A DNA stretch of 32,000 nt, taken from an uncultured Lachnospiraceae bacterium (GTDB taxonomy: Bacteria > Bacillota > Clostridia > Lachnospirales > Lachnospiraceae). Below, piece after piece: positions 26,177 through 30,088 of the stretch; position 1 is the first letter of the stretch; the number at the start of each line of letters is the position of its first letter. The notes under the pieces are model-generated. The model saw nothing but the letters and a program-made list of their open reading frames with translations. It did not search any database and had not been told where the DNA came from. Location: NCBI GenBank assembly GCA_944383545.1, contig CALWPY010000001.1, positions 11,980 through 43,979 on the forward strand, read 5' to 3'. The position numbers and the translations under genes are program-made.

Positions 26177-27292
26177 TTAATAAGCAGCAGTATTAATGTT
26201 CATAGGAAGTATTACATAAATATAGCTTTCTTCTTCATTCTTAATAATGCAAGGATTTCTGAAATCATTCATGTAAATATTCACTTCTTCATCATCTATT
26301 ACACGAAGTGCATCCATTATAAATTTAGGATTAAATCCAATTACAATTTCTCCGCTGTCTTTTCTTATACTTATTTCTTCATTCATGGAGCCCATATTGG
26401 AATCTACGTGAAGATACATATTGTTGTCATTTTTAATACTAATAATGATAGGTTTTTTATCAGACTCCTTTATAAGAAGAGATGCTCTGTCAATACAATC
26501 CAAAAGTTCTTTTTTATTAACATTAACCCTCATCTTATAATCGATTGAAAGCATCTGTGAAATTTTAAAATATTCACCCTCCAGAAGTCTGGAAACAACT
26601 CTTGTCTCATCAAACTCAAAAAGTATATGTCTGTCAGTAAAATAAATATTTACCTCATCCTCTGCTCCTCCGTTTATAATCTTACTTAAATCCATAAGAG
26701 TTTTTCCCGGAACTACAACTTTTACATTTTCATTTTCTCCCTTAAGAGGAATTTTGCGCAGAGAAATACGATGACCGTCAAGAGATACAACAATTAAAGT
26801 ATTATCCTTTACTTCAAAAGACTCTCCGGTCATAAGCTTTGTATTTTCATTATATGATATTGAAAAAATGGTTTGTCTTACTACTTCTCTCAAATCAAAC
26901 TGGGAAAGAGTTATGCTTTTTTCTTTCTCTATATCAGGAAGATAAGAAAAATCCTCACCTGATTTACTTGCTATTACGAATTTTGATTTTTCACACCTTA
27001 TTGTAGTCTTATAATCTTCACTTGTTTCTATATCTATTTCACTTTCAGGAAGCTTTCTTACTATGTCAGAAAAAATCTTTGCCTCTATGGCTATTTTTCC
27101 TTCTTCCAGAATAGTACCGTCTATAAAAGTTTCAATTCCAATCTCTAAATCATTTGCAGTAAGTTTTATTCTGTCATTTACTGCTTCGATAAGTATACAT
27201 TCAAGTATTGGCATTGTAGTTTTAGTTGAAACAGCTTTTGAAACAATATTTATACCTGCTGCCAGATTATTTTTACTGCATTTTATTCTCAT
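26177..27292 (-). CDS. dnaN: DNA polymerase III beta sliding clamp
   Basis: 371 aa with the three-domain clamp pattern (ILECILIEA ... LTANDLEIGI ... SLDGHRIS ... FNPKFIMDAL). It lies downstream of dnaA. Confidence 0.93.
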   Translation of the reverse strand: MRIKCSKNNLAAGINIVSKAVSTKTTMPILECILIEAVNDRIKLTANDLEIGIETFIDGTILEEGKIAIEAKIFSDIVRKLPESEIDIETSEDYKTTIRCEKSKFVIASKSGEDFSYLPDIEKEKSITLSQFDLREVVRQTIFSISYNENTKLMTGESFEVKDNTLIVVSLDGHRISLRKIPLKGENENVKVVVPGKTLMDLSKIINGGAEDEVNIYFTDRHILFEFDETRVVSRLLEGEYFKISQMLSIDYKMRVNVNKKELLDCIDRASLLIKESDKKPIIISIKNDNNMYLHVDSNMGSMNEEISIRKDSGEIVIGFNPKFIMDALRVIDDEEVNIYMNDFRNPCIIKNEEESYIYVILPMNINTAAY

Positions 27293-27562: not shown

Positions 27563-28954
27563 CTATTTATCCTGAGGATTTATCTTTTTTATGATAATCT
27601 GTATCATTGCGTTAAATTCCTCATCCTCTTCCATTTTTTTCTTAACATTTTTTATTCCGCTCATAACTGTGGCATGATTTTTTCCACCTACAATGTCTCC
27701 TATTGAATGAAGAGTTTTAGCCGTATAGTTACGGCAGAGATACATAACTATCTGTCTTGCTATTGCTATGTCCTGACTTCTCTTTTTGGAGCATATGTCT
27801 TCTGTGGATATATTTAAGTGTTCAGCAACAGTATTTAATATGAGCTCACCGGTTATGGAAGTGTTTGAATCCTTCGAGATAAGGTCCTTTAAAGTATCTT
27901 TTGCCAGGTCAACCGTAATATCAACATTTATAAGCTTTGAATATACACTTATCTTGTTTAAGGCTCCCTCAAGCTCACGCACGTTTGATACAATGTTTTC
28001 TGCAATATATTTAAATACATCATCAGAAATGTTTGTAAGGTTATCCATTTCGGCCTTATTTTTAAGGATGGCCATACGTGTTTCATAATCAGGGGCATGA
28101 ATATCAATAGGAACTCCCCATTCAAAACGTGAACGGATTCTTTCTTCAAGTGATTTTATTTCCTTTGGAGGTTTATCCGAGGAAAGAATTATCTGTTTTT
28201 TAGCTTCATATAAGAAATTAAAGGTATTGAAAAATTCCTGCTGTGTTCTTTCACGGCCTATGATTTCCTGAATATCATCAATTAAAAGTACATCTACCTG
28301 TCTGTATTTAGCTCTGAATTCTTCAGTTTTATTCTTTTGTATGGCATCAATAATTTCATTAGTAAAAGTTTCTGAAGAAACATACAGGACGTTTGCTTCA
28401 TCGTCATGCTGAAGTATGTAATGTGCTATTGACTGCATAAGGTGAGTTTTTCCAAGTCCTGAGCCTCCGTAAATAAAAAGAGGGTTAAAATTATCCTGTG
28501 AAGGAAGGTCAGCTACTGCAAGACATGTAGCATAGGCATGTCTGTTACTGTCACCTACAATAAAATTATCGAATGTATATTTAGGATTTAAATTACTTCT
28601 TCTTATTGCATCACGATAAGCCTTGCTGTAAGAAGCATCCTCGTTTTCCTGAGAATCTTCTTTATTAAAAGTCTTGGCAAGGTTTGATTTTTCATCTATA
28701 ACTATTTCAATATCAGCATTGTTTAGAATTTCTCTAATGGAAGAAAGAAGAAATATATCATAACCCTTCTTGTGGAGATAATCTACTCCGAATTTACCTC
28801 TCTGTTCATCAACAAAAAAGTATATGGTATTATTTCTTACTTCATAAACTTTAATAGAACGTATCCATGTATCTATAATAATTTTTGATACGTCATATTG
28901 AGTTTCCAGAAGGTAGAGAATATCTTCCCATTTGCTTTCAATCAGTTTCTTCAT
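27563..28954 (-). CDS. dnaA: Chromosomal replication initiator protein DnaA
   Basis: 463 aa. NPKYTFDNFIVGDSNRHAYA, Walker A GGSGLGKTHLMQ, Walker B LLIDDIQ, sensor SSDKPP, and the domain IV motif IARQIVMYLCR ... IGDIVGGKNHATVMSG. Confidence 0.97.
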   Translation of the reverse strand: MKKLIESKWEDILYLLETQYDVSKIIIDTWIRSIKVYEVRNNTIYFFVDEQRGKFGVDYLHKKGYDIFLLSSIREILNNADIEIVIDEKSNLAKTFNKEDSQENEDASYSKAYRDAIRRSNLNPKYTFDNFIVGDSNRHAYATCLAVADLPSQDNFNPLFIYGGSGLGKTHLMQSIAHYILQHDDEANVLYVSSETFTNEIIDAIQKNKTEEFRAKYRQVDVLLIDDIQEIIGRERTQQEFFNTFNFLYEAKKQIILSSDKPPKEIKSLEERIRSRFEWGVPIDIHAPDYETRMAILKNKAEMDNLTNISDDVFKYIAENIVSNVRELEGALNKISVYSKLINVDITVDLAKDTLKDLISKDSNTSITGELILNTVAEHLNISTEDICSKKRSQDIAIARQIVMYLCRNYTAKTLHSIGDIVGGKNHATVMSGIKNVKKKMEEDEEFNAMIQIIIKKINPQDK

Positions 28955-29040
28955 TTTATATAAAGCCTTTCAAAACAGTAAAAATTTAAGTGTGCATAAT
29001 TACTTATATAATACATCAAAAATTAAAAAGAAACAAGATT

Positions 29041-29340
29041 AATTGTGGATTATTGGATATGTTTTATTTGTATAAAGAGATATAAAATAAAGGGTGATAA
29101 TGTATATTTAAATTCAAGCTAAAATCTGTCGAAGGTCTGATAAAAATAACATATCTTTATAAACAATTACTTCCTGCGGAACTCGTGCTTTGCACTCAAA
29201 CAGTCCTCGGAAGTAATTATAAAGATATATTATTTTTAAGACCCTCTGACAGATTACGCAAATGAATTATAAATATACATTTTCACCTTTATTTTTGTAT
29301 TCTTTAAAATCAAATAAAACATAACCTATAATCTACAATT
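29041..29340. repeat. Long imperfect palindrome E1 (~300 bp, arms ~130 bp) with a GC-rich apex
   Basis: The left arm 29041-29173 aligns with the reverse complement of 29210-29340 over its full length, with small indels. Examples are aattgtggattattggatatgttttatttg vs aattgtagattataggttatgttttatttg, and aatctgtcgaaggtct vs aatctgtcagagggtct. Apex at 29174-29209. Confidence 0.85.
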
Positions 29341-29404
29341 AATAAATACTGCTTTATTACTACAGTTTTTTAAGGTGATATTAAGATGAGTTTTTATTTT
29401 TTGT

Positions 29405-29640
29405 TGAAACAATATAAAAATAAAGTATATATGTTATGTTTATAATTTATTTGTGATATCTGCTATAAACTCTTAAAATATGATTTTAGCTAATAAATAT
29501 GCACGAGGACTGTCTGACGGCGAAGCCGGAGTTCCGCAGTGCATATTTTATGAGCAAAATCATGTTTTTTAGAGTTTAAGCAGATGTTAACACGAATTAT
29601 AAACATAATATATATACCTTATTTTATATATTTCATAAAA
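29405..29640. repeat. Long imperfect palindrome E2 (core ~235 bp, weaker pairing out to about 29375-29665), apex inverted relative to E1
   Basis: The left arm (ataaaaataaagtatatatgttatgtttataattt ... tgattttagctaataaatatgcac) pairs with the right arm (gtgcatattttatgagcaaaatca ... aattataaacataatatatatacctta ttttat). Apex at 29504-29539. Confidence 0.8.
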
Positions 29641-29953
29641 AATAAATAATTATGTTAAGTAAATTTTATGTTTTGTGGATTAAATAAAATGTGAAAAATA
29701 TCGAAAAATAAACATTTAGTAAAATAACTAACAATAATACACACAGTTATTAACAAGTTTTAAACAAATTGTTGATAACATTACGTAAACCAAGTGATTA
29801 TTTTTAAATTTATTGTAGGAAATTTTATTATAAATATTGTGATAATTTTGCTGTTTAGCTTGACTTTTAATACTGTATCAAATAAAATAAGTTCGGTCTG
29901 TTTTCTTAACGGACGGAAATTTATATCTAAATAGGAAAGAGAGGTGTATTGAG

Positions 29954-30088
29954 ATGAAGATGACATTCCAGCCAAAGAAGAGGTCCAGGTCTAAAGTTCA
30001 TGGTTTCAGAAAGAGAATGAGTACTGCTAACGGCAGAAAGGTATTAGCTGCAAGAAGAGCTAAAGGCAGAAAAGTATTATCAGCCTAG
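29954..30088 (+). CDS. rpmH: 50S ribosomal protein L34
   Basis: 44-aa ORF, too short to appear in the supplied track: [50 protein letters not shown] lies 9 nt upstream of the start codon. It sits in the canonical position upstream of rnpA. Confidence 0.95.

Follow-up and report, generated by a model that had tools for sequence, protein, structure and literature searches.

Why does the spacer between dnaA and rpmH of an uncultured Lachnospiraceae bacterium contain two very long palindromes side by side, and do they belong to the replication origin? The stretch in question, called the window in the following, comprises 32,000 nucleotides (GenBank assembly GCA_944383545.1, contig CALWPY010000001.1, positions 11,980 to 43,979 of the forward strand), and the palindromes, termed E1 and E2, were noticed in a reading made from the letters alone (the sequence-only reading), in which a role at the origin was suspected. 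The gene order around them is dnaN (26177-27292, minus strand), dnaA (27563-28954, minus strand) and, beyond a spacer of 999 bp, rpmH (29954-30088, plus strand), followed by rnpA, yidD and yidC. Because of this gene order and because the GC skew changes its sign near 29000, the spacer is a genuine origin-proximal region. The explanation that we favour, with a probability of roughly 0.6, is that E1 and E2, two hairpin modules in mirror image, form a single non-autonomous mobile insertion, similar to repetitive extragenic palindromes (REPs), bacterial interspersed mosaic elements (BIMEs) and miniature inverted-repeat transposable elements (MITEs), which is tolerated in the spacer upstream of dnaA. 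The element is present in multiple copies in genomes, is absent from close relatives at this locus, differs in its alleles between near-identical strains, forms dimers of a '+' followed by a '-' module that are able to carry cargo, and possesses stems that covary around a fixed apex. Its parts within the window are the following:

29039 to 29636, no strand assigned: non-coding, lineage-specific insertion of around 598 bp, consisting of E1, a 61-bp linker and E2 (spacer alignment with the relatives L268, L269, L271 and L274)
29038 to 29343, plus strand: E1, near-perfect palindrome of 306 bp, '+' hairpin module (folds, inverted repeats, 68.7 bits with the covariance model R1)
29071 to 29310, plus strand: inner module of E1, around 240 bp, replaced in haplotype B by a diverged but palindromic allele (strain comparison)
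29174 to 29209, plus strand: apex motif of E1, CTGCGGAACTC-GTGCTTTGCAC-TCAAACAGTCCTCG (aligned with 112 further copies)
29185 to 29195, plus strand: variable tip hairpin of E1, termed P2, GTGC TTT GCAC (sequence and family covariation)
29344 to 29404, no strand assigned: AT-rich linker of 61 bp between the modules (sequence, fold as single-stranded DNA)
29405 to 29640, minus strand: core of E2, palindrome of 236 bp, '-' hairpin module, with weaker pairing out to 29381-29658 (folds, 59.4 bits with R1)
29504 to 29539, minus strand: apex motif of E2, in minus-strand reading CTGCGGAACTC-CGGCTTCGCCG-TCAGACAGTCCTCG (motif scan of the 32 kb)
29480 to 29560, no strand assigned: centre of E2, 81 bp (apex and around 20 bp per arm), deleted in haplotype B between 5-nt ATTTT repeats (strain comparison)

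The boundaries of the insertion lie in AT-rich sequence and are good to around ±10 bp.

Both palindromes are as extreme as they had appeared at first sight: E1 (29030-29350) folds into one hairpin of -122.3 kcal/mol (shuffled sequences: -43.9 ± 3.9; z = -19.9) and E2 (29375-29670) into one of -106.8 kcal/mol (z = -14.7), the arms of the inverted repeats being complementary, in blocks, to 91-95%. Folded as single-stranded DNA, the entire region 29030-29670 forms two separate hairpins (-141.8 kcal/mol; z = -19.8). An artefact of assembly can be dismissed, since several assemblies of this species, made independently, contain the palindromes. The common apex in opposite orientation, likewise described in the sequence-only reading, was recovered: the asymmetric 36-nt motif CTGCGGAACTC-N11-TCARACAGTCCTCG occurs exactly twice in the 32 kb, at 29174-29209 (plus strand) and 29504-29539 (minus strand), with a chance expectation of 0.00, and the tip hairpins do differ by two compensated base pairs (GTGC-TTT-GCAC in E1, CGGC-TTC-GCCG in E2). 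Concerning the arms, the impression that those of E1 and E2 have little obvious identity needs correction; E1 in plus and E2 in minus orientation can be aligned over their full length at modest identity, and the two therefore represent the same kind of element, present in two copies that have diverged and face each other as mirror images. Neither contains an open reading frame (ORF) of more than 38 amino acids, and the covariance models of Rfam 15 yielded, for the window region, only generic miRNA-precursor hairpins far below threshold, in agreement with the earlier statement that no described RNA family fits.

The relatives available for comparison are the closest retrievable dnaA loci, with DnaA proteins 81, 79, 75 and 74% identical to that of the window (L268, L269, L271 and L274); the DnaA homologues carry Eubacterium or Lachnospiraceae names, and related contigs stem from bovine and rumen metagenomes. 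The spacers between rpmH and dnaA measure 411, 444, 429 and 429 nt in these relatives versus 999 nt here. They align with the window on the rpmH side, where the likely rpmH promoter and the DnaA boxes at 29770 and 29674 are included, and again in the roughly 90 nt that adjoin dnaA, the sequence from around 29039 to 29636 being wholly missing, such that the length of the relatives' spacers plus 598 bp gives that of the window's. A covariance model built from the family and run with filters off matches E1 and E2 and no copy in the relatives' loci. The relatives thus lack the palindromes but keep the promoter region of dnaA and the region of DnaA boxes that flanks the insertion, and a position conserved among related species, as expected for a part of oriC, is not found. 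According to these alignments, E1 and E2 are an insertion gained by this species between an ancestral cluster of DnaA boxes and the dnaA promoter, and not a conserved part of the origin. Two of the sites in this cluster are given for context, both being situated outside the element:

29770 to 29778, minus strand: DnaA box TTATCAACA, kept in all relatives
29674 to 29682, minus strand: ancestral DnaA-box-like site TAATCCACA, aligning with TTATCCACA of the relative L268

Four near-consensus DnaA boxes exist within 1 kb. Concerning the DnaA-box-like sites that had been placed at the outer edges of E1 and E2, those at 29044 and 29674 match in eight of nine positions each, whereas the one at 29329 carries two mismatches; the first of them sits in the outer arm of E1, and the site at 29674 is, like the box at 29770, ancestral and outside the insertion, and hence marks no edge of E2. 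A direct repeat of 10 nt with a DnaA-box-like core, TTGTGGATTA, is found at 29043-29052, within the left margin of the insertion, and at 29673-29682, 37 bp beyond its right end; it may stem from the insertion event or consist of two DnaA boxes. As a target-site duplication it is not supported, because the right copy is ancestral and the repeat does not abut the boundaries. A likely rpmH promoter is situated at 29860-29888 (TTGACT-17-TAAAAT), and the block GCTTGACTTTT is kept in all four relatives.

Within the species, the insertion varies. Ten contigs encode an identical DnaA, and their spacers fall into two haplotypes: haplotype A, which is the sequence of the window (L122 is 100% identical), and haplotype B, in which E2 is devoid of its central 81 bp (29480-29560, i.e., apex and inner stem) by a deletion between ATTTT microhomologies, and in which the inner 240 bp or so of E1 are swapped for a sequence that still forms a near-perfect hairpin (-112.7 kcal/mol). 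The outer arms of E1, around 33 bp each, are nearly alike in both haplotypes. The two alleles of E1 are 69% identical (31% diverged), with 22 base pairs changed on both sides yet paired versus two one-sided changes; outside E1, strains of the two haplotypes differ by around 0.3%. The apex of E1 in haplotype B reads CTGCGGAAGTC-GCTTCGC-TCCAACAGTCCTCG, and the apex itself can therefore vary slightly. A second replacement limited to a module is found at one locus recovered from two metagenomes (L182:4736-4815 and L192:2356-2435), where an entirely different tip hairpin (GCTTTAAAAAGC vs. GGGAAGTTTCCC) and changed arms stand between flanks that hardly differ. The haplotypes also differ farther away, beyond the right end of the window: around 5 kb past yidC/jag, haplotype B contains an island with helix-turn-helix and integrase genes where haplotype A has parA-parB-serS (L121:93-3776 vs. 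L122:1-4600).

Beyond the locus, the apex belongs to a multi-copy repeat scattered over many genomes. This outcome, like the absence of the palindromes from close relatives, had been named in the sequence-only reading as one that would refute its interpretation, and an origin-specific role is not supported. The apex was searched for as an exact pattern in one genome per species and in metagenome contigs, the latter scan being biased to AT-rich flanks, and at least 119 loci were found in the species-representative genomes and at least 120 in the metagenome contigs, altogether more than 240. Hosts include Gallionellaceae, Rhodocyclaceae/Zoogloeaceae, Sulfuricellaceae, Methylophilaceae, several gamma-proteobacteria, and metagenome-assembled genomes (MAGs) of a spirochaete and of a member of the Leptospirales. 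The commonest low-GC type in the metagenomes belongs to Patescibacteria (an adjacent gene encodes a PBP2 with 93% identity to that of a 'Patescibacteria group bacterium'), such that at least four phyla possess the apex: Proteobacteria (beta and gamma), Spirochaetota, Patescibacteria, and Firmicutes with the Lachnospiraceae-like genome studied here. Further copies, in a Bdellovibrionales MAG (L006) and an Akkermansia isolate (L066), sit on short contigs and are of the GC-rich Thauera/Gallionella type; they possibly represent contamination from binning or assembly and are not to be counted as further phyla.

Without exception, the motif forms the tip of a local hairpin, the stem sequence of which follows the base composition of the host. 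Several contigs of one genome may carry copies (at least four loci in Rhodocyclaceae 5N065 and at least three in Ferribacterium), and low-GC genomes contain mostly singletons with arms of 20-35 bp. The arms of E1 and E2, with 100-135 bp, are the longest among 266 copies measured, and for these long AT-rich arms no homology was found in other family members. With the DnaA, DnaN, RpmH, RnpA and YidC proteins of the window, tblastn yielded no match among 257 motif loci, i.e., the apex was never found linked to dnaA, dnaN or rpmH in them. Neither did Rfam return a real match (E ≤ 10) for nine family loci, a repeat unit from Rhodocyclales and a copy of the Patescibacteria type, the beta-proteobacterial and Patescibacteria-type copies giving, like the window, generic miRNA hairpins below threshold only, and a BLAST search of E1-E2 and of a Thauera-type module against plasmid and phage collections gave one short chance match only. 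In the literature searched (MITEs and REPs in the host genera, hairpin-flanked cassettes), no description of the element was found, and the apex boxes used as text queries led to unrelated primers. The hairpin repeats recognisable by this apex form a large family, which is missing from Rfam and was not found in the searched literature.

Concerning the arrangement of neighbouring copies, a '+-' polarity as in E1/E2 prevails over '-+' with 35:1 in the exact pattern, 45:2 in a relaxed pattern and 47:2 with the covariance model, and direct pairs are rare (one '++' by covariance model). In Rhodocyclales, the pair is part of one repeat of around 620 bp with inverted ends of its own and distinct left and right module types, which recurs on several contigs of one genome (L028:6870-7420, also L029, L039, L079, L089 and L098). 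The inverted ends of this unit carry CTTGGGGTTCCGCC, and an extra short hairpin is situated near each of them; its '+' and '-' apex modules are of different subtypes, and its conserved AT-rich centre contains ACGGTCAACCGGAAAA.

The beta-proteobacterial pairs enclose nothing, an insertion sequence (IS), or low-GC, defence-like genes. Where the modules are spaced 0.9-3.6 kb apart, the genes between them have a lower GC content than the locus (0.37-0.46 vs. 0.45-0.60) and belong, in either orientation, to McrBC-like, DUF3800, Schlafen/AlbA_2, Mrr_N, DUF4357 and DUF2971 families. At an orthologous site in Gallionellaceae, between an AAA-ATPase gene and mutT/thiE (L019:1798-5404; L090:4969-6372; L003, L015, L023), a '+' module is followed by variable low-GC cargo and a '-' module, the cargo consisting of McrBC-like genes in L019 versus an unrelated ORF of 317 amino acids in L090. 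According to Pfam, ten cargo proteins represent assorted accessory genes with no common mobility gene. The IS4-type transposase (DDE) situated between the pair of L011 was rejected as the autonomous parent, since it belongs to a separate IS with different terminal inverted repeats (TIRs) of its own. When 2144 ORFs situated no farther than 2.5 kb from a copy were clustered all against all, no family reached more than eight loci, except for a spurious ORF across the repeat, and Pfam assigned ordinary housekeeping functions to 148 immediate neighbours in low-GC loci, with no mobility gene among the 25 commonest.

That the symmetry exceeds chance and that the hairpin shape is kept despite sequence change, as argued from E1 and E2 alone, holds family-wide, since both stems covary. 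In 113 aligned copies, 76.6% of the cells are paired vs. 58.6% in shuffles, with none of 500 shuffles reaching the observed value; doubly changed cells amount to 178 vs. 84.5 in shuffles, and slid controls pair in 25-50%. The P2 tip hairpin exists in 135 distinct sequences of 2-8 bp, around 85% Watson-Crick. What defines the family is an apical motif with irregular pairing, C-TGCGGAACTC-[variable hairpin]-TCARACAGTCCTC-G, and even within this 'invariant' apex a G:C to C:G swap occurs in one subfamily, where G6 to C is accompanied by C10' to G in seven of eight cases; the apex is therefore an irregular helix. From the base upward, it comprises a 3x2 internal loop, GGA paired with TCC, a bulged A, CT paired with AG, a 1x6 loop (C vs. 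TCARAC), and P2. Because changes 30-60 nt apart need not covary in duplex DNA, the element must at least sometimes be read as a folded single strand. As to which strand, P2 mismatches are G:T in 27 and A:C in 31 instances, and there is a mild bias in gene orientation relative to the motif strand (upstream genes co-oriented in 104 vs. 59 cases, downstream genes in 83 vs. 74). With G:T as frequent as A:C, a weak orientation bias and mirror-image pairs, the data point to no single RNA strand. The compensatory changes reflect a family-wide need for the hairpin and probably also exchange between copies and quasipalindrome template switching, the latter being an established mutational mechanism.

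With the REP/BIME/REPIN group, the family shares intergenic imperfect palindromes, multiple copies per genome and stems that differ between lineages, as well as a preferred dimer polarity (here 47 '+-' vs. 2 '-+' and 1 '++'). Head-to-tail dimers are rare in REPs, too, and the REP-associated tyrosine transposases (RAYTs, of the HUH/Y1 type) act on irregular REP hairpins (PMC3733652). Distinct left and right unit types resemble the y and z REPs of BIMEs, and copies mostly without an adjoining transposase resemble the REP/RAYT system, where the enzyme is encoded by a single-copy gene elsewhere; no RAYT gene was found within 2.5 kb of any copy, whole genomes not having been scanned. REPs differ, however, in being 20-40 bp long, lineage-specific and tagged with GTAG/CGTC at the stem base, whereas the modules here measure 90-300 bp (236-306 bp in the window) and are conserved over around 25 nt at the tip in four phyla. 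GTAG-like strings were seen by eye to flank the beta-proteobacterial modules only.

With bacterial MITEs (Correia/NEMIS, ERIC, RUP) and mobile insertion cassettes the family has in common long non-coding hairpins of 100-600 bp, presence or absence among relatives, and, in some versions, passenger genes between the ends; the palindromic arms of E1/E2, which are non-coding, and the inverted ends of the Rhodocyclales unit agree with this. MITE ends, however, match the TIRs of a known IS, whereas no parent IS was found here among the 257 loci and each end consists of a hairpin of its own, with the conserved apex, instead of a simple TIR. Integron attC sites, plasmid sso/ssi sites and HUH nick hairpins likewise depend for their function on a hairpin in which unpaired or bulged bases are conserved and the terminal stem-loop varies, and their stems covary with little sequence conservation. 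In contrast to attC, the sites studied here possess no R/L boxes, are inverted instead of direct, and carry cargo in both orientations; among the neighbours no integrase family was found, nor a Rep or relaxase gene nearby. Since the pair does not pass the defining tests for an oriC part, a classical REP, a MITE with a known IS, an attC site or an Rfam family, it is filed as a variant of the palindromic-repeat kind and assigned to no named family. The TwoAYGGAY RNA motif (RF01731), which occurs in gut Clostridia and several further phyla, likewise consists of a long hairpin whose short tip hairpins are conserved, but differs in apex sequence and architecture, and its model does not match the window elements. 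It does score above the gathering threshold at L004:2997-3132 (plus strand) and L105:7772-7909 (minus strand), in Spirochaetes/Leptospirales loci that also carry an apex module. Among known motif classes, ribozymes, k-turns and SRP-like, dif-like and IHF-like motifs were considered for the apex, and none gave a convincing fit.

If E1 and E2 are such an insertion, the element would act as DNA, in the form of an extruded or single-stranded hairpin, and the apex may be the recognition site for a trans-acting enzyme encoded elsewhere, for which a HUH/Y1 (RAYT-like) transposase working on folded single-stranded DNA would be the best analogy. Arm complementarity would be kept by the hairpin requirement of this enzyme together with exchange between copies and quasipalindrome template switching, and the place in the dnaA-rpmH spacer would be a tolerated accident with no function for the origin. 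Several findings weigh against this explanation. As the 2.5 kb around the copies (257 loci) harbour no transposase and no other gene that is conserved, the mobilising enzyme is purely inferred. An identical apex in four phyla is hard to explain by a lineage-specific transposase; its apparent invariance is partly built in, as the scans demanded exact apex boxes, and they do not give the frequency of apex variation. The visible sequence of this species, around 42 kb, holds two copies only, and their arms of 100-135 bp are four to five times as long as those of other low-GC copies. Finally, neither a clean target-site duplication nor a precise empty site could be defined, the nearest insertion-free genome being around 20% diverged at DnaA.

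A bolder version of the mobile insertion is put forward tentatively: The family may represent an undescribed, cross-phylum kind of hairpin-ended mobile or recombinogenic DNA, and a widely conserved factor would recognise its tip in the folded, single-stranded state; the '+/-' pairs would then be portable brackets shuttling defence and accessory genes, and the pair at dnaA one such unit caught in the origin region.

That the modules are instead structured RNAs (a 3'-end stabiliser, a terminator-like element, an sRNA or a ribozyme) with a functional apical internal loop, spread because the RNA is useful, appears unlikely to us. Stems covarying around conserved loop nucleotides are the classic signature of such RNAs, the excess of co-oriented upstream genes (104 vs. 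59) fits, and the opposite strand beside P2 reads UGA[P2]GAG, by eye similar to tandem G.A pairs. Yet G:T and A:C mismatches are equally frequent, unlike in known RNAs, the mirror-image pairs would place opposite strands of the motif in any one transcript, the cargo is of mixed orientation, Rfam gave no match at E ≤ 10, the two window copies exhibit no intrinsic-terminator signature, and a near-perfect duplex of 100-135 bp would be a substrate for RNase III.

It is also improbable that the hairpins are DNA sites serving the host through a universal replication or repair factor, be it as single-strand priming sites on opposite strands or as recombination or landing pads for foreign genes. The '+-' pair does place one copy of the motif on each strand, the orthologous Gallionellaceae loci do hold different cargo within the same kind of pair, and an identical apex in four phyla, the tiny genomes of Patescibacteria included, would fit a universally conserved partner. 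Against this stand the many singletons, the absence from this locus in close relatives, such that the sites are dispensable there, and the failure to find them in plasmid or phage collections; moreover, the apex has no similarity to dif/XerCD sites or DnaA boxes, as judged by reading and not by a formal search.

It is very improbable that only the apex of around 45 nt is mobile and inserts into the loops of existing hairpins, the 'covarying' stems being host sequence. Stems matching the host GC content around a constant apex, and a variable E1 module lying symmetrically inside conserved outer arms, would agree with it, but within a lineage the stems and flanks belong to the repeated unit, the whole 598 bp including the arms are missing in relatives, and the deletion of the E2 apex in haplotype B has slippage microhomology and is no clean excision.

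Least probable of all, and largely refuted as judged from the comparisons with relatives, strains and the family, is that E1 and E2 are cis-acting parts of the oriC/dnaA control region, i.e., cruciforms flanked by DnaA boxes: the location in the rpmH-dnaA spacer where the GC skew changes sign, the eight-of-nine match that the outer arm of E1 contains at 29044, and the four near-consensus boxes within 1 kb are opposed by relatives that lack E1/E2 yet retain the flanking boxes, by strains of the same species that tolerate the loss of the E2 apex and the replacement of E1, and by the finding that none of 257 other motif loci lies at an origin.

For the annotation of this lineage, a tempting but wrong assignment is thereby removed, as the palindromes are not origin machinery, and the dnaA-dnaN spacer and the conserved DnaA boxes at 29670-29790 are what origin predictions should be based on. 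Since whole modules are replaced even among strains that hardly differ otherwise, these loci are also useful as strain markers. For the family, it is unusual among REPs and MITEs that the same tip of around 25 nt is found in four phyla, that the pairs have a strict polarity, and that they surround variable, low-GC, defence-like genes at conserved chromosomal sites; identification of the tip-reading factor could bring to light a new mechanism of mobilisation or recombination.

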